Positions 2,914 to 10,384 are shown, counted from the first letter of the stretch. The stretch: 64,000 bases of DNA from Candidatus Paceibacter sp. (GCA_013360865.1 JABWAS010000004.1:412-64411), one strand, 5' to 3'. The notes: generated by a model not told the origin, from the letters alone. Numbers and translations are program-made.

Positions 2914-3071
2914 ATCTTTTTGAAACAGCCGCCGCCCGTCCGCCAACCGGTGGACTCGCGCATAGCAAAAAAGTTTTCTCTGCTTTTCTGATTTTGCGCG
3001 CGCCGGATTTTTTCTTCTAAAAGGAAAAGAAAACTTTTTTGCTGGCTTCTGCTCTGACCGAGCAGGGCGGC

Positions 3072-3167
3072 AAGGCTGGCCTATATTTTTGCTCGGTCGC
3101 GGCGGAATTACCCCACACCCCCTTCCGCCTCGCCCTCGCTTGGGCTGGCGAATTTTTTTGCGGAGCT
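3072..3167. repeat. Left arm of 96-bp near-perfect inverted repeat (partner 7655..7750)
   Basis: Reverse complement of 7655..7750 matches 3072..3167 with a single mismatch; GC-rich (~60%) in an AT-rich context. Confidence 0.9.
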
Positions 3168-3256
3168 CCAGTGCGCGGGCAAGTTGGCGGAACTCACTAA
3201 ATTAGTATATGACAATTTGGAATATAACACAATGGAATATTACCATATAGATAACT

Positions 3257-3478
3257 ATGGTTAAAGCAATTTTATCAAAAGACCATAAATACACTGTTGA
3301 GCAGTTGAAAAAAGCTCGCCAAGAGGCCGGTTTAGATCAGGCGGAAGTAGCCAAACTGCTCGGGAAAACCCAATCTCATGTCTCAAAGGTAGAAGCCGGA
3401 CAGAGGCGTATTGATATTGTTGCACTCAAGGAGTTTGCCTGGATTTATAAAAAGCCACTGGATTATTTTTTGAAATAA
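3257..3478 (+). CDS. XRE-family HTH transcriptional regulator (controller/C-protein-like)
   Basis: 73 aa; HTH_XRE signature (LKKARQEAGLDQAEVAKLLGKTQSHVSKVEAGQRRIDIVAL); first gene of R-M-like cassette, stop overlaps next gene start (ATGA). Confidence 0.7.
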   Translation: MVKAILSKDHKYTVEQLKKARQEAGLDQAEVAKLLGKTQSHVSKVEAGQRRIDIVALKEFAWIYKKPLDYFLK

Positions 3479-3479
3479 C

Positions 3480-4442
3480 ATGTCTGGCCTTTCTGATTAC
3501 ATAAAAAATAGATTCGGGGTTGATGAAGACATCTTCCTCGAAGCAATAAATATAAGCCCTAGTGCCAGGGGGTATATTATGGGTGCAATAAGTGAGTTAT
3601 TTTTGGCTGAGTATTTAAAAAAGAAAGGTTTTGAGGTTCTTAGGATTAAAGAAAAACCGAAAGGCGGCAACAATGCAAAAAGTTCTGAAGCTCGAGGCGA
3701 TTTTTACATTCGACCAATAAATTCCGAAGAAGATAAATGGTTGGTTATAGAGAGTAAAGGACTAAAAAGCAACTCAGAATTTCGGGGAGATAAATTGAAT
3801 AGTCCGGACAAGCTATTTAGATTCCTTAAAGCTGTTGTGTCTTTAGCGAAAAACAAGTCAAAAACTTATGAGAATGGTTTGCGCTCGTATAAGCGAATAA
3901 AAGCGTTATGGGAAGCAAAAAACAAAAGAAAGTCATTTCCACAATTTAATTGGAATAAAGAATTTCCCGGTCCCATTGCGTGCGACTTGAGTAAAATTTG
4001 GAAATCTGAAGACGATTTGAAAAAATGGGTGTACGCTTTGCCAAAAGAACTATTTACTGAAACAGCCTATAGAAAAGTTGCGGGCGCGATAGCAATCCTT
4101 GAGACTCACCAACCGAGTACTAGAGTTGCGCCCATAACTGGTTTAAAACAAGCTGCTCCTCTTGTAAGTGACTTTAACATTATGGCCGTTGATCTCTTTT
4201 TAAGAACCGGAAAACATGAGTTTGTTTTTATGAATTCGTCGGAGATTAGTCATTCGCCGACTTCTCCCGAACACTTATACCAAAATTATGTTATTGATAT
4301 TTTAGTCAAAGGGAGAAAAGAGGAGCTTCGGATAAATCGCCCTTGGTATACCGATATCGAGGCGTGCATCAAAACAACCAAACCACAATATCGGATTATT
4401 GATAAAAGCCAGCTTGATAACAGAGAAGTAGAGGAAATGTGA
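3480..4442 (+). CDS. Putative PD-(D/E)xK nuclease (candidate restriction endonuclease)
   Basis: 320 aa; E...GDFYIRP...WLVIESKG arrangement fits D-x(n)-E-x-K nuclease core; located between C-protein-like gene and MTase. Confidence 0.45.
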   Translation: MSGLSDYIKNRFGVDEDIFLEAINISPSARGYIMGAISELFLAEYLKKKGFEVLRIKEKPKGGNNAKSSEARGDFYIRPINSEEDKWLVIESKGLKSNSEFRGDKLNSPDKLFRFLKAVVSLAKNKSKTYENGLRSYKRIKALWEAKNKRKSFPQFNWNKEFPGPIACDLSKIWKSEDDLKKWVYALPKELFTETAYRKVAGAIAILETHQPSTRVAPITGLKQAAPLVSDFNIMAVDLFLRTGKHEFVFMNSSEISHSPTSPEHLYQNYVIDILVKGRKEELRINRPWYTDIEACIKTTKPQYRIIDKSQLDNREVEEM

Positions 4443-4459
4443 GTTATCCACATTGAGAT

Positions 4460-4499
4460 AATACACCGCTGTGTAGTATAATTTACACAACGGTGTATT
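4460..4499. promoter_or_regulatory. 16-8-16 palindrome (AATACACCGCTGTGTA-gtataatt-TACACAACGGTGTATT) containing a TATAAT box, candidate operator/promoter of the MTase gene
   Basis: Arms are reverse complements with 1 mismatch; spacer contains tataat; 16 nt upstream of MTase start. Confidence 0.4.
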
Positions 4500-4514
4500 A
4501 TTTTACTTAATTTT

Positions 4515-6614
4515 ATGCAAAAGCAAATGCTTTTTCCAGAGTTGGAACAAATATCAAAAGACGACCTTAAAAAGGCCGAGAATCTTTTTAAGGTTTTTGG
4601 CGATATTCATAACCACATTTATGCTAACGATGGTCTCTCCTCTCAAGAAGCCTTTGCCGAAGTTCTAAAATTGCTTTTTATAAAAGTTGAAGATGAGCGA
4701 GGCGATGAAAAAAAATCAAAATTTTATATTTCGGAAGTTGAGAAAGATGAAATTAGTGATGGACGAGACGACACATTTCGTAAAAGGATTGTAGAGCTTT
4801 TTGATAAAGCAAAAAAGGACTACGACGATGTTTTTGATGAATCAGAAAAAATCAATCTCAAAACTGCGACCCTGGCATTTGTTGTTAGCAAACTTCAAAA
4901 CCTCAATCTTTCTCGTTCGGAGAGAGATGTTAAAGGAACGGCCTTTCAAAAATTTGTTTATTCTCATCAGCGTGGAGAACGCGGCCAGTTTTTTACACCT
5001 GATCCAATAATCCGGCTCTGTGTAGAATTTTTATCTCCACAAAAAAATGAGAAGGTCCTCGATCCTGCGTGCGGTACCGGCGGTTTCTTAGTAGAGGCCA
5101 TGAAGTATGTTTGGCAAAACAATTTCGCAAATATTAAGGACAGCGAACAAAGAAAAAAGAAAGAAATGGAATATGCCGAAAATCATCTTTTTGGTATAGA
5201 AATCAATCCTCTTGTCGCAAAGGTAGCAAAAATGCGAATGATTTTAGAAGACGATGGCTATTCTGGAATCGTCAATACTAATTCTCTTTCAAATATCCAT
5301 GCTATACAGAAGGAATTTTCAAAATCCACGAAATTAAACAAGATTGAAGGTTCTTTTGATTTAATTTTGACTAATCCACCATTTGGTTCTCAAGGTAAAG
5401 TTACAAACGAAAATGTTTTGCGAGATTTTTCACTTGGATATAAATGGTCAAAGGATAGTCGTGGAAAACTCGTTGCTACCAATCAATTACAGAATGGGCA
5501 AGTGCCGGAGATACTGTTTATCGAGCGTTGTCTTGGGTTATTAAAAGACGGAGGAAAACTAGCGATAGTTCTTCCAAATGGCGATTTTGAAAATTCCAGC
5601 CTCGATTATGTCAGAGAGTTTATAAATTCTAAGGCTAAAATTTTAGCAGTTGTTGCTTTGCCACCCGAAACTTTTATACCCCATGGGACGGGCGTTAAGG
5701 CCTCGCTGTTGTTCTGTCAAAAACTTTCTCCGGTAGAACTGGAGGCGCAAAAGAAAAAGGACTATTCGATTTTCTTTGCCAAGATCACAAAAGTTGGTTA
5801 TGAAGGAAATAAGAATGGCACAATTATTTATAAAAAGGATTCGCAAGGAAGGGTTGTGGAAAATCAGGATGGCGATCCTATCATTGATGAAGATATATCA
5901 GAAATAATCTCGGCATATTCTCAGTTTAGAGAGAGCAAAAAAATAAAAGCAAATAATAATATATTTACACTACAATATAGTGAGCTGAATAACCGATTTG
6001 ATGTTGAGTACTACAATCCCGAATATCGTAAAATTCGAACTCTACTTTCGAAAGGAGGCGCTAAAAAACTTGGAGAGCTAGTTGAAGTAGTAACTAGAAA
6101 AAGCAAGAGACTCAAAACTCCGGAGGCGGTGATTCGCTATGTCGAATTATCTGATGCAAGTTCTATAAATGGCGAGCTTGTTTCTTATTCAGAGATGCAG
6201 GTGCACGAAGCTCCTAGTCGCGCTTCTTATGAAATTGAGGAAGGAGATATTATTACTGCAGTTGCCGGTAACTCTATCGGAACAAAAAACCATGCCACAG
6301 CAATTGTAAGGCGAGATTTTAGTGGAGCAATATGTACGAACGGTTTTAGAGTTTTGAAAGCAAACAGCATTAATCCATATTATCTTTTCGCAATTCTACG
6401 ATCTGATATTTTTCTATCACAAATATTTAGATTACGGACTGGGGCGGCAATACCTTCGGTTTCTGATGAAGATTTAAAAAACATCCTAATTCCTATACCT
6501 CCAGAGACCGAACAGAAAAAAATAGAAAAAACAATCCGAGAAGGTTTAGAGTTGAGAGAGAAATCACGTCAGCTTTTAGACGGTATCTCTCTGGAGGCAT
6601 ATATTTTGAAGTAA
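4515..6614 (+). CDS. N6-adenine DNA methyltransferase, HsdM-like, with fused C-terminal HsdS-type target recognition domain
   Basis: 699 aa; HsdM N-terminal domain, motif I LDPACGTGGFL, motif IV LILTNPPFG; C-terminal ~220 aa resembles a single HsdS TRD plus conserved C-terminal helix (GELVEV...EQKKIEKTI). Confidence 0.85.
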   Translation: MQKQMLFPELEQISKDDLKKAENLFKVFGDIHNHIYANDGLSSQEAFAEVLKLLFIKVEDERGDEKKSKFYISEVEKDEISDGRDDTFRKRIVELFDKAKKDYDDVFDESEKINLKTATLAFVVSKLQNLNLSRSERDVKGTAFQKFVYSHQRGERGQFFTPDPIIRLCVEFLSPQKNEKVLDPACGTGGFLVEAMKYVWQNNFANIKDSEQRKKKEMEYAENHLFGIEINPLVAKVAKMRMILEDDGYSGIVNTNSLSNIHAIQKEFSKSTKLNKIEGSFDLILTNPPFGSQGKVTNENVLRDFSLGYKWSKDSRGKLVATNQLQNGQVPEILFIERCLGLLKDGGKLAIVLPNGDFENSSLDYVREFINSKAKILAVVALPPETFIPHGTGVKASLLFCQKLSPVELEAQKKKDYSIFFAKITKVGYEGNKNGTIIYKKDSQGRVVENQDGDPIIDEDISEIISAYSQFRESKKIKANNNIFTLQYSELNNRFDVEYYNPEYRKIRTLLSKGGAKKLGELVEVVTRKSKRLKTPEAVIRYVELSDASSINGELVSYSEMQVHEAPSRASYEIEEGDIITAVAGNSIGTKNHATAIVRRDFSGAICTNGFRVLKANSINPYYLFAILRSDIFLSQIFRLRTGAAIPSVSDEDLKNILIPIPPETEQKKIEKTIREGLELREKSRQLLDGISLEAYILK

Positions 6615-6637
6615 ATTTACATGACAAGATTTTTCAC

Positions 6638-7714
6638 ATGCAAAAAATTAAAAGAAAAATTAGAATTATCCTTTATAAACTTTTCGGTAATTTACTCTTT
6701 GAATTAAAAACAAGAAAAAGAAGAAAGATACATCAGAAAATTAAACGAGAGCATTCCAAGCTTGAATCAGCTTTTAGGAAGCTAGAACAGAATTTGCAGG
6801 GAATAAATTACCCGAACAACGATTTTAATAAAATAATGTCGATGGTGCTCTCAGATTTAGAGTTATTTGAGCACATTGTCCGACGATTTAGACATGATAG
6901 ACAGATTTTGAGCTACATTTCCCGGGATGATCAATTTTTGCACTTTTTAGGCCCAAATAAGAGATCGTACCCGTCTCATCCATACGAGCGCGATAATAAT
7001 GCGGCAATAAAAATTGATGTTCAATCACTGTTTATGTTTGGAATGATTATGATAAGTCGGAGCCTGTTACTGTTAAAAATGTATCTGCCAGATAGAGGCA
7101 GTAAAAATGGAGAAGGGATGTATCATAAAATTGGGAATTTTTATTTTGAACTTAGCCAATCTAATCGGTTGTCGAATTTGTCACAAAAATTTAAGGATAA
7201 TTTTCTAACCAAAATTAAGTGGCTATATTCTGCCTTGAGGTTTTACAGAAATGAATTTATTGAGCATTTGGATAAGGGATATCAGCAAGGCATGAATTTT
7301 GGTGTTTATGGTAACGATTTTGCGCTTTCGTCATATAAATGGAACTATGGTGATAGCGATGACGAAAAAGTAGAAAAATTTAGGGCTAAACTTGAAAATG
7401 CAGGGGTTCAGATTTCTGGCAGAAGTAGTGGAGGTCGGAGTTTGATAAATAGATATTATATACAAAGAGTATTTGATAACATTGAATACGTGCCAGACAA
7501 TTTATTAAAAGAAGCGCTAGACCTTATTGAAGAGGTGGGAGTTCATTCTCCACAACCGGAAAAAGTTATATCGGAAATAGAAGGATATATGGTGGGCGTA
7601 TTAAATTTTATGTCCGATGAGTTGAAGAGTAGCGAATTGATCAAATATAAAAATAGCTCCGCAAAAAAATTCGCCAGCCCAAGCGAGGGCGAGGCGGAAG
7701 GGGGTGTGGGGTAA
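6638..7714 (+). CDS. Hypothetical protein (358 aa) with highly basic N-terminus; last ~19 codons encoded by the right inverted repeat
   Basis: No recognisable motifs; co-oriented with and 23 nt downstream of MTase; C-terminus ...ASPSEGEAEGGVG lies inside IR 7655..7750. Confidence 0.3.
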   Translation: MQKIKRKIRIILYKLFGNLLFELKTRKRRKIHQKIKREHSKLESAFRKLEQNLQGINYPNNDFNKIMSMVLSDLELFEHIVRRFRHDRQILSYISRDDQFLHFLGPNKRSYPSHPYERDNNAAIKIDVQSLFMFGMIMISRSLLLLKMYLPDRGSKNGEGMYHKIGNFYFELSQSNRLSNLSQKFKDNFLTKIKWLYSALRFYRNEFIEHLDKGYQQGMNFGVYGNDFALSSYKWNYGDSDDEKVEKFRAKLENAGVQISGRSSGGRSLINRYYIQRVFDNIEYVPDNLLKEALDLIEEVGVHSPQPEKVISEIEGYMVGVLNFMSDELKSSELIKYKNSSAKKFASPSEGEAEGGVG

Positions 7715-7750
7715 TTCCGCCGCGACCGAGCAAAAATATAGGCCAGCCCT
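7655..7750. repeat. Right arm of 96-bp inverted repeat (partner 3072..3167)
   Basis: See left arm; 95/96 identity in inverted orientation. Confidence 0.9.
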
Positions 7751-7811: not shown

Positions 7812-8828
7812 TTGTTTATAATGAAAAATATTTTTAAGTTAATTTTTTCTGTTGCTGTTTGCGAACTCGCCGGATTTATAGGTTCTCTTTTTACCATGCC
7901 GGCGATAATGTCGGGCTGGTACGCCGGACTGGCCAAACCGGAACTCGCGCCCCCGAATTGGATATTCGCTCCGGTCTGGACGGTCTTGTTTGCCTTGATG
8001 GGCGTGGCCGTATTTTTAGTGTGGAAAAAAGGACTTGGAAACAAGGGAGTAAAGACCGCGTTGATAATTTTTGACACGCAGCTTGTTCTGAATGTTATTT
8101 GGTCGGTGATTTTCTTCGGGCTCAAAAGTCCCGGCTGGGCATTTGTGGAAATTGTTTTCCTCTGGTTGGCTATTCTTGCCGCGATCATTGCGTTCGCGCG
8201 CGTCTCCAGGCCGGCCGCCTGGCTTCTGGTTCCATACATTATCTGGGTGACTTTCGCCGGATATCTCAACTACTCAATCTGGCAGTTAAACGCATCTGGT
8301 TCAGGACAAGTTGCCTGCACGCAGGAGGCCAAACTTTGTCCGGATGGATCATATGTCGGGCGAGTCGGACCTAAGTGCGAATTTGCTCCGTGTCCCGGAG
8401 GAAATAACGACCTTTGGAAAACGACTACGGACGAAAAGACCGGCACAACATTCCAGTATCCGGAGACTTTGCTCACCACATACATCCAGACCGTAGATTG
8501 GCCGCCGCAGGTTCAGGTGTTGAATGAGACATATACTTGCACCGAAGCCGGAGAAGAAACCGCCCGTGCTGGTAAAACCGAAAGGCGAATGGTTGATAAC
8601 CGCGAATACTGCCGCACGAGCGTCGTGGAAGGCGCGGCCGGCAGTATCTACACGCAATATGCTTATGCGTTTCTGAAAGATAATAAAACCGTCATTTTCA
8701 CTTTTACCACTCGCGCGACGCAATGCGGCAATTATGACGAAACTGAGCGAGAATCGTGCGAAGGTGAAAGAGAAACTTTTGATATTGATAGCGTCGTTGA
8801 CCGCATGGCGCGAAGCGTTAAATTCTAA
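7812..8828 (+). CDS. TspO/MBR family membrane protein fused to C-terminal cysteine-rich extracytoplasmic domain
   Basis: 338 aa; N-terminal ~160 aa with TspO pattern (WYAGLAKPELAPPNWIFAPVWTVLFALMG, multiple TM helices, Trp-rich); C-terminal domain begins with ACTQEAKLCPDGSYVGRVGPKCEFAPCPG motif shared with next-but-one gene. Confidence 0.7.
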   Translation: MFIMKNIFKLIFSVAVCELAGFIGSLFTMPAIMSGWYAGLAKPELAPPNWIFAPVWTVLFALMGVAVFLVWKKGLGNKGVKTALIIFDTQLVLNVIWSVIFFGLKSPGWAFVEIVFLWLAILAAIIAFARVSRPAAWLLVPYIIWVTFAGYLNYSIWQLNASGSGQVACTQEAKLCPDGSYVGRVGPKCEFAPCPGGNNDLWKTTTDEKTGTTFQYPETLLTTYIQTVDWPPQVQVLNETYTCTEAGEETARAGKTERRMVDNREYCRTSVVEGAAGSIYTQYAYAFLKDNKTVIFTFTTRATQCGNYDETERESCEGERETFDIDSVVDRMARSVKF

Positions 8829-9358: not shown

Positions 9359-10384
9359 ATGAAAGGAAAGGACTGGTTAAAGTTGGCTATTGCTGTCGGT
9401 GTTTTTGGGCTTGCCGGCTATCTTGTTTACTCAAACCGGCGGCTTAGTCCGGATGATTTCGGACAAACGGCTTGCACGCAGGAGGTCAAGCTTTGCCCGG
9501 GCGGATCATACGTCGGACGCGGCGGGCCGGATTGCGAATTCGCGGCTTGTCCGGCAGCAAAATCATCTTCAAGCGAGGCGGCCGTCAAATCTAAAGAACC
9601 AAGCGCAATAAAGACCGTGGAGCAGATCGGAAAGAAAACCGAAAAACAAACAGCGCCCCAGACCCAAAGCAAGAATTATTCCTCGTCAATTTCTCAAGCG
9701 GCATCCTCATCGCTGGCGCCGAACCCAGAGCCGGTAAAAAATAATTCAGACAGGCTTGTGTTGCATAACATCGGCATAGAGCTTGAGCCGTATGCGGCCG
9801 GAAATCGCGCCGGCGATATTGTGTTTACGAAGTCAATCGGCGAACATTTTTACAAAAAGGCCTTTATGGAATTCGGGACAGAGTTGACCGGACCGGGCGG
9901 CACGGACATTATGCCGCATCCAACTTATATTCTGCCTCTAGGAACAAAATTATTTTCCCCGGTAAAAGGAGTCGTGGAAAACATCAGATACCAGCCGGAT
10001 CACAACGATTATGAAGTAGTCATCGTACCCGACGGATACTCAAACTGGCGGTTAAGTTTTGACCATGTGACTAATTTAAAAGTCGCCAAAGGAGACAGGC
10101 TTGAGGTTAAAGGTGTCGTCGCCGAGGTGGCGCCAAGCTCTAGTTCGGCCGTTCCTGCCGGATTCGGGCTGGTGGAACTGCAGGTGTGGGGAGAAAGGTC
10201 TTTCTTTCAATCCGAAATGATGGCGACTTGCCCTTTTCTTCTTTTGGATGAAAGCGTAAGGCAATCCATTTATGACAAAATCACCCGGCTGGCCAACGAC
10301 TGGGAAAATTATCTGGGCCAGGACGTTTACCGGCAGGAAAAGTGGGTTGCTCCCGGCTGTCTTTATGAAACGGCCGGCGCCTGA
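9359..10384 (+). CDS. Membrane-anchored secreted protein with N-terminal Cys motif (CTQEVKLCPGGSYVGRGGPDCEFAACP), Ser/Ala-rich linker and C-terminal globular domain
   Basis: 341 aa; N-terminal TM; Cys motif ~80% nucleotide-identical to the motif region in 7812..8828. Confidence 0.4.
   Translation: MKGKDWLKLAIAVGVFGLAGYLVYSNRRLSPDDFGQTACTQEVKLCPGGSYVGRGGPDCEFAACPAAKSSSSEAAVKSKEPSAIKTVEQIGKKTEKQTAPQTQSKNYSSSISQAASSSLAPNPEPVKNNSDRLVLHNIGIELEPYAAGNRAGDIVFTKSIGEHFYKKAFMEFGTELTGPGGTDIMPHPTYILPLGTKLFSPVKGVVENIRYQPDHNDYEVVIVPDGYSNWRLSFDHVTNLKVAKGDRLEVKGVVAEVAPSSSSAVPAGFGLVELQVWGERSFFQSEMMATCPFLLLDESVRQSIYDKITRLANDWENYLGQDVYRQEKWVAPGCLYETAGA

Follow-up and report, generated by a model that had tools for sequence, protein, structure and literature searches.

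Within a 64,000-nucleotide stretch of DNA from Candidatus Paceibacter sp. (GCA_013360865.1 JABWAS010000004.1:412-64411), here called the window and numbered from its first letter, a block of restriction-modification (R-M) genes is enclosed by two long inverted repeats, which we refer to as arms. Our analysis leads us to conclude that this segment is probably a defence cassette from a family of modular mobile elements linked to a large serine recombinase (LSR), which, we infer, acts on the arms. The arms recur across the Patescibacteria; in some related loci an LSR gene lies just outside an arm and, wherever its 3' end is visible, meets the 3' end of a tRNA gene, and relative to this recombinase the same cassette occurs both ways round.

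The two arms are inverted copies of each other over 94 nt (94/94 complementary) and lie 4487 nt apart. An original prediction, made from the sequence alone, had given the repeat a span of 96 nt (3072-3167 / 7655-7750), which on recount is complementary at 95/96 positions. It had also described GC-rich arms around an AT-rich block, as the composition confirms: the GC fraction is 0.606 in the arms, 0.366 in the interior and 0.443 in the window. The parts of the repeat are these.

2964..3073, minus strand: outer extension of the left arm (its "long form"), from the inverted-repeat scan, blastn against the 305-nt arm of locus L035 and the long-form alignment
3074..3167, minus strand: left arm, with the core at 3131-3152 (reverse strand), GC hairpin A at about 3096-3136 and an inward terminator-like hairpin plus T7 at 3136-3160
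7655..7748, plus strand: right arm, with the core at 7670-7691 and hairpin A at about 7686-7726; shorter than the left arm

This pair is the only one of its kind in the 64 kb, since no second inverted repeat of at least 35 nt occurs anywhere in the window. Three arm sub-segments are each present exactly twice, with 0 matches in dinucleotide-preserving shuffles, and a search for further arm copies within the window returned none beyond the two. ARAGORN and Rfam did not recognise the arms as a tRNA or a known RNA (window at the gathering threshold, L035 at an E-value threshold). The left arm is of the long form (2964-3167) and the right one is cut at 94 nt. The left outer extension, which is kept in other loci and missing from the right arm, has an imperfect palindrome (2964-2987 / 3020-3043) around GCGCGCGC, followed at 3049-3065 by the small hairpin CTGCTC-TGACC-GAGCAG. 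In contigs from other strains (L052, L053, L056, L057:26-47), 22 extra nucleotides (ttgccatcgagcgaaggatttt) stand between positions 7748 and 7749 and lengthen the inverted repeat by 5 nt; the difference is either strain variation or a small deletion in the metagenome-assembled genome (MAG) from which the window comes.

That the source is a MAG, and that contigs assembled from short reads of other samples end at the repeat, might suggest an artefact of chimeric joining or collapse. However, in sister-strain short-read assemblies from independent samples the flanks are 98-100% identical and the breaks fall exactly at the repeats or the adjoining palindrome, as expected for a real inverted repeat; de Bruijn assemblers are expected to break at a perfect one. 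Flanks and cassette together are also 98-100% identical in independent samples, and dozens of independent assemblies and studies contain this architecture, with the same arms around the cassettes of many other contigs. An origin of the repeat in faulty assembly is thus effectively refuted.

The wider family was searched for by exact match to a 22-nt invariant core of the arm, TTCGCYAGYCCAAGCGAGGGCG, the metagenome part of the search giving a lower bound. The core is present at no fewer than 153 loci, 33 of them in species-representative genomes and at least 120 in metagenomes. All 33 loci in named genomes are from Patescibacteria, in many classes, and the arm family appears to be confined to this phylum. 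A phage origin was rejected, the core not being found in viral contigs. The matches listed include 42 paired cassettes, of which 34 are non-redundant. Their interiors measure 0.7-6.1 kb, mostly 1.9-4.5 kb, and in all of them the core points outward. In a related locus, L007, the same arm sequence, again inverted, surrounds a different R-M system together with a 339-aa homologue of the accessory protein that ends the window cassette. The original prediction had proposed a search for further copies of the repeat in other genomes, and its outcome is that the same arms flank dozens of cassettes. As to the natures then proposed for the segment, related loci strengthen the case for a probable mobile or invertible one, whereas an insertion scar is not favoured, given that more than 150 loci have these arms in common as a conserved, structured element.

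From its inner to its outer end, an arm is made up of an A-run, the core and the GC-rich hairpin A. Long arms add a second hairpin, the palindrome centred on GCGCGCGC, a GC-rich stretch and a conserved tail, reaching 305 nt in L035; half arms (about 46-54 nt) and short arms (about 82 nt) also occur. Hairpin A shows covariation: of 48 unique hairpins, 30 have a Watson-Crick match at the variable pair, where shuffling gives 17.3 +/- 2.9 (0 of 5000 shuffles reach 30), an excess inflated by relatedness; an extra G is always paired with an extra C. One arm of L160 has the hairpin-A loop flipped. Read inward, the core of both window arms gives a small hairpin followed by T7, resembling a terminator, and many cargo genes end in a TAA that abuts the arm. 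Some arms end near the centre of hairpin A, beyond which foreign sequence or tRNA genes begin; like the flipped loop, such arms would fit recombination at the hairpin. At L131:547-873 a gap of 23 nt separates two arms in tail-to-tail arrangement, suggesting that two cassettes adjoin there. The half-form arms of L023, L059, L067, L071 and L139 join a common conserved outer sequence, a gene start (GGAGATCCGCTATGAGAAAAAGTCAA) followed by TGTGGATAA-like DnaA-box motifs, and this sequence may be a recurrent secondary target.

A recombinase is found next to some of these arms. In 16 loci an LSR of about 505 aa (Resolvase, Recombinase and Zn_ribbon_recom domains) is encoded just outside an arm, its gene transcribed outward and starting 250-1050 nt from it; where the outer flank is 700 nt or longer, 15 of 101 arms adjoin such a gene. 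It is already known that serine recombinases can adjoin defence genes (PMC13552941). In all nine loci in which the 3' end of the LSR gene is visible (9/9), it either overlaps the 3' end of a tRNA gene or lies against it; in L176 a C-terminal LSR fragment alone remains, overlapping a tRNA. For 109 arms, 19 tRNA hits were counted no more than 400 nt from an outer end, compared with about 3.6 expected by a rough estimate from the tRNA density of the loci, and some arms are directly beside tRNA 3' ends with no LSR. The LSR genes are themselves bounded by perfect inverted repeats of their own 3' coding end, 72-148 nt long (L090:7847-7994 / 9449-9596; also L152, L116 and L164). A reading of the L090 sequence shows the outer edge of this repeat falling on the final bases of the adjoining tRNA gene. 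No direct repeat of the tRNA 3' end was found at the far end of the LSR islands, only the inverted copies flanking the LSR.

These neighbours bear on the possibility that the cassettes are non-autonomous transposons, with the arms as terminal inverted repeats for a DDE-type or other transposase encoded elsewhere. Long inverted repeats, varied insertion contexts and the lack of a recombinase within would suit such elements. There is a precedent in the transposon-like R-M units of Xanthomonas and Neisseria (PMC2853133), and about 5 kb from the cassette sister strains differ in the presence of an IS30-like transposase, with an rve fragment on the same contig. Nevertheless, we found no target-site duplication, there being no direct repeat outside the arms of the window or the 305-nt arms of L035; the recurrent cassette families include no transposase; the outer arm ends vary (half, short, long) and have no fixed terminus; and the neighbours that are enriched are serine recombinase and tRNA genes. 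Because no target duplication was seen and no transposase is among the recurrent cassette families, a DDE-type transposon mobilised in trans is disfavoured, and we consider transposition of this sort quite unlikely. The accessory protein was also weighed as the missing transposase and rejected, since most arm-bounded cassettes lack it and it also occurs in loci with no arms.

The cassette occurs in both orientations relative to the LSR, as seen by comparison between different metagenomes (L116 with L133, 84% over 3.4 kb; L126 with L158). Such inversions, the classic role of serine recombinases as invertases and the inverted repeats that bound the LSR gene itself are all compatible with a programmed switch, that is, phase variation in which the repeats exist to flip the cassette and so turn defence on or off. 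Against this, the cassette has promoter-like and operator-like sequences of its own and no outside promoter is evident; moreover, since the arms look like inward terminators, orientation should not alter expression. We therefore give a programmed switch very little credence.

A further account dispenses with a dedicated recombinase. The arms would act as conserved landing pads and transcriptional insulators, natural transformation and double crossover would spread the cassettes, and ordinary homologous recombination between the inverted arms would flip them. The arms are nearly identical within a locus (94/94 in the window; 98% over 305 nt in L035) and less alike between loci (73-98% to the L035 arm); the same arms enclose very different cargo, sharply bounded and with stop codons that abut the arm; both arms carry the inward terminator-like hairpin; and both orientations are observed. 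Saccharibacteria are naturally transformable. Homology does not explain, however, how arms reach new genomic sites, why they are so strongly linked to tRNA and LSR genes, or why some end at the hairpin centre beside unrelated sequence, and as a complete explanation it seems to us unlikely. Homologous exchange through the arms, and insulation by them, are compatible additions or alternatives to an explanation based on the LSR.

The LSR-based explanation, which we prefer, would work as follows. A complete element would comprise an LSR gene at a tRNA 3' end, bounded by inverted copies of its own 3' end, with one arm-bounded cassette alongside. The hairpin dyad may be the site at which the LSR or host recombination inserts, inverts or exchanges cassettes, and its symmetry would permit either orientation; the inward hairpin and T-run may insulate toxic R-M genes from outside transcription. 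The nearest LSR-bearing relative of the window layout is L116, which reads LSR, arm, helix-turn-helix (HTH) gene, restriction gene, methyltransferase gene, a gene for a 340-aa homologue of the accessory protein, arm. The 64-kb window lacks an LSR, both arms are free of tRNA genes for 9 kb around, and, as the original prediction had stated, no recombinase is encoded inside the cassette. With neither LSR nor adjacent tRNA, and with its right arm truncated, the window copy would therefore be non-autonomous, and either mobilised in trans or stranded. A bolder version of the same idea is an integron-like platform built on an LSR and not on a tyrosine integrase: parked at a tRNA 3' end, it would capture, flip and exchange self-regulated defence cassettes with long dyad-symmetric ends (the 22-nt core plus hairpin), and the window cassette would have escaped to a secondary site. 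This version is possible, and we hold it as a doubtful one.

Several observations weigh against the action of an LSR on the arms. Most of the adequately flanked arms (86/101) have no adjacent LSR, and the missing recombinase and tRNA mean that nothing ties the window copy to one. The repeats (46-305 nt) far exceed the half-sites of about 20-25 bp in known LSR att sites. The junctions of half arms spread over about 10 nt with no single fixed crossover, and conservative recombination at the hairpin centre alone would leave the identity beyond the hairpin, such as the 94 nt of the window, unexplained. A symmetric site for protein binding, a DNA or RNA hairpin, or gene conversion between half-sites could each account for the covariation of hairpin A, and the folding energies of the arms are unexceptional for their composition (z = -0.9 to -1.8). 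Finally, neither a circle nor an empty site was found; searches with the flanks gave only contigs that break at the repeats.

The cargo of the family was surveyed in 110 open reading frames (ORFs) from 32 non-redundant cassettes, of which the 25 most frequent Pfam families were examined. It consists overwhelmingly of R-M and other defence genes; L013 and L035 are among the few cassettes that carry others. No transposase or integrase family is among those 25, a list that does not include all families represented by a single ORF. Methyltransferase domains account for 27 matches in the 110 ORFs. Nucleases are of TaqI, TdeIII, NgoPII, MutH, His-Me and Vsr types, and other domains include ThsB-TIR, HNH, AAA_15 and Schlafen, along with small GIY-YIG or HNH proteins. 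A gene for an HTH protein like the controller (C) proteins of R-M systems lies beside one arm in most cassettes, the homologues being 48-88% identical to the HTH protein of the window. LexA/S24-type proteins make up 13/110 ORFs: a LexA-type DNA-binding domain and an S24 self-cleaving peptidase are fused N-terminally to DNA methyltransferases, or are encoded just ahead of Vsr and Dcm (L015:753-1379, L024:1224-2711, L039:1327-2778, L042:1158-2678, L090:4662-6527, among others). This pairing suggests damage- or signal-responsive control of methylation.

The window cassette holds four ORFs, at the coordinates first predicted for them, together with two putative regulatory sites.

3219..3240, plus strand: putative C-protein operator, two GGAATAT copies 15 nt apart, upstream of the HTH gene
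3257..3478, plus strand: C-protein-like HTH regulator, 73 aa (Pfam HTH_3, 7.7e-13; PADLOC HTH_VI, Control_protein, 4.6e-5)
3480..4442, plus strand: candidate PD-(D/E)xK restriction endonuclease, 320 aa (fold and D74/E91/K93)
4453..4501, plus strand: 18-8-18 palindrome (4458-4475 / 4484-4501, 94%), overlapping a TTGAGA-18-TATAAT promoter-like site before the methyltransferase gene
4515..6614, plus strand: N6-adenine methyltransferase with one fused HsdS-type target recognition domain (TRD), 699 aa (Pfam N6_Mtase, 1.3e-37; Methylase_S, 6.4e-8)
6638..7714, plus strand: accessory protein, 358 aa, all-alpha, basic (isoelectric point 9.5), a family of its own with no Pfam family

Profile and fold evidence upholds the domain calls made earlier for the HTH protein, the nuclease and the methyltransferase-specificity (M-S) fusion. 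The nuclease matched no Pfam, PADLOC or NCBIfam family, and its residues D74, E91 and K93 ("GDFY...IESKG") are invariant across 566 homologues. The methyltransferase scores 6.7e-99 with MTase_II and 7.4e-21 with Specificity_I in PADLOC, and its NCBIfam matches to MAD2 and MAD5 fall under the cut-off. Two details of the layout needed correction. The HTH stop codon (3476-3478) does not overlap the nuclease start, the ATG at 3480 following after 1 nt; and the palindrome that had been described as 16-8-16 does have TATAAT in its loop, but its arms are of 18 nt. This palindrome may terminate the unit of regulator and nuclease genes, serve as operator and promoter of the methyltransferase gene, or both. 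The GGAATAT repeat is found upstream in L007 as well, and L185 has an inverted ATATTCC...GGAATAT; a C-box is a plausible reading of it.

On sequence grounds, we identify the HTH regulator, nuclease and M-S fusion as an ordinary C-protein-controlled Type II R-M module with a gamma-class methyltransferase. With the accessory gene, this module makes up a cassette that looks functional. The nuclease and M-S genes adjoin in unrelated genomes whether or not the HTH gene is present, and are therefore a genuine R-M pair. As in PvuII, AhdI and Esp1396I, which are C-protein-controlled Type II systems, a small HTH gene lies directly upstream of the endonuclease gene and in the same direction, a repeated operator-like motif precedes it, and the methyltransferase gene has its own putative promoter; unlike them, the window has an HsdM-like gamma-class methyltransferase with one fused HsdS-type TRD. 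The same module is also found with no arms, in a Levybacteria genome (L185:5436-9912), where genes for a C protein, a 319-aa nuclease, an M-S fusion and a 173-aa protein are inserted between rpsJ (S10) and rplC (L3) in a ribosomal protein operon. The gene architecture itself is therefore not unusual, and to call it "not textbook", as had been done, was an overstatement: regulator, nuclease and methyltransferase are the standard set for C-controlled Type II systems, and the same module with a fused specificity domain occurs elsewhere without arms.

The 358-aa accessory protein has 89 relatives at E <= 0.001, mostly of 337-342 aa. Its last 19 codons (7655-7711) do lie in the right arm, as predicted, but they do not look like a designed feature: homologues stop about 19 residues sooner, the A-run ahead of the usual TAG is 1 nt shorter in the window than in L007, and the arm-encoded tail is predicted to be disordered. 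From these comparisons we take the tail to be incidental read-through and non-native. Homologues adjoin different R-M systems (L007, L008, L116); another lies beside an HNH protein, a serine recombinase and a Type I system (L002), and in L005 there is no R-M system nearby. The protein thus behaves as the fourth component that had been suspected, though a swappable one, found with other R-M systems and without any, and its gene can be regarded from its neighbourhoods as a modular accessory gene.

What this protein does may be hinted at by its sequence. The predicted structure is an all-alpha fold (predicted local distance difference test, pLDDT, 84.8), and R204, N205 and H210 are invariant in 43 sequences, forming an Rx5H motif that fits the HEPN pattern Rx4-6H. 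HEPN and abortive infection (Abi) genes are known to be linked to R-M operons, and DUF4145 and Ymh are counted as HEPN families (Anantharaman et al. 2013, PMC3710099). The resemblance extends to position, in that the tail slot of R-M operons holds an accessory gene, with DUF4145 in that slot in sibling cassettes, and L183, a related defence locus linked to the 98-aa protein encoded to the left of the window cassette, carries Hypoth_Ymh. Unlike those genes, the 358-aa family has no profile-level similarity to any HEPN family. Apart from the motif, every attempt at a HEPN assignment was negative: Pfam gave 0 hits in 43 members, a PDB sequence search none, hhalign against one DUF4145 protein a probability of 0.6%, and Foldseek none at E <= 0.001. 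The fold is accordingly uncertain and the HEPN hint weak. An Abi-like or HEPN-like effector is nonetheless our best guess, a tentative one, in line with the linkage of HEPN genes to R-M operons (PMC3710099).

Inverted-repeat R-M units with no transposase have been known since 2010, and it is the arms, as a conserved element family, that are the new part. Furuta, Abe and Kobayashi (2010, PMC2853133) described R-M units in long inverted repeats of 65 bp in X. oryzae and 26 bp in N. gonorrhoeae, with no transposase inside, and proposed that they are mobile or mobilised in trans. The window cassette shares this plan of R-M genes between long inverted repeats with no transposase within. Their units, however, were single cases with 8-bp target duplications, of which none is seen here, and with repeats specific to each unit, whereas the Patescibacteria arm is conserved and structured, occurs at more than 150 loci with interchangeable cargo and is linked to LSR and tRNA genes. 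LSR integrative elements at tRNA genes are alike in that, in the related loci, the LSR gene lies at the element end and overlaps the tRNA 3' end. They differ in that here both LSR and cargo are inside long perfect inverted repeats, and that the cargo module is found both ways round and sometimes lacks an LSR, the window copy having neither LSR nor tRNA.

Comparison may also be made with two kinds of small gene module that have conserved recombination sites and no recombinase of their own, and that are exchanged between contexts. The pdif modules of Acinetobacter plasmids carry inversely oriented 28-bp sites for the tyrosine recombinases XerC/D, and integron cassettes are promoterless, with one attC each in direct orientation, and depend on IntI. 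None of these traits of site or recombinase (28-bp sites, tyrosine recombinase, attC, IntI) is seen here. No tyrosine recombinase turned up, and the cassettes further differ from those of integrons in their inverted arms and in having a regulator and promoter-like sites of their own. In the literature we found no prior account of the arm family, of its linkage to LSR and tRNA genes or of such a system in Patescibacteria, in a search of incomplete coverage that is not proof of novelty.

The genes around the window cassette show features of their own. To its left, at 2617-2913, is the gene for the 98-aa DUF4325 (STAS-like) protein, which has more than 1100 cluster relatives in many lineages of the candidate phyla radiation. 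Leaving aside the query's own cluster and one relative at 95%, the best-scoring 120 of these are about 76-82% identical to it. In relatives (L179-L184) its homologue follows a MerR/HTH_17 protein and precedes variable defence genes (EcoRI methylase, GmrSD-HNH, TIR, Ymh), and the protein may mark another defence hot spot or module. Homologues of the 98-aa protein sit in different, likewise defence-rich contexts, with no empty site among them. The IS30-like transposase (HTH_38 plus rve, 311 aa; L052:5028-5963, L054, L055) lies between DUF4382 and cytochrome P460 genes and is absent from the window (at about 12700) and from L053. The msrB (SelR) gene at 1503-1863 appears as a 66-aa ORF in the window and most sister contigs and as one of 136 aa in L048; the short form may be a frameshift or a polymorphism. 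A TspO-domain protein (7812-8828), which has a long C-terminal extension, and the ORF lying two genes downstream (9359-10384) both contain the Cys-rich motif CTQE.KLCP.GSYVGR.GP.CEF..CP.

These findings bear on the movement of R-M and other defence genes between genomes, which is largely unresolved, and on gene exchange in the tiny, host-dependent Patescibacteria, which is poorly known. The locus yields a testable system, with a structured arm, a candidate enzyme in the LSR at tRNA genes and dozens of natural cassette variants. If the LSR does act on the arms, this would be a new mode of defence-gene shuffling and a possible source of recombinase-site pairs with unusually long symmetric sites, and the 22-nt core would be a simple tag for mining defence genes in an under-studied phylum. 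Should the LSR prove inactive on them, the family would still document the phylum-wide horizontal spread of a vehicle for defence cassettes.

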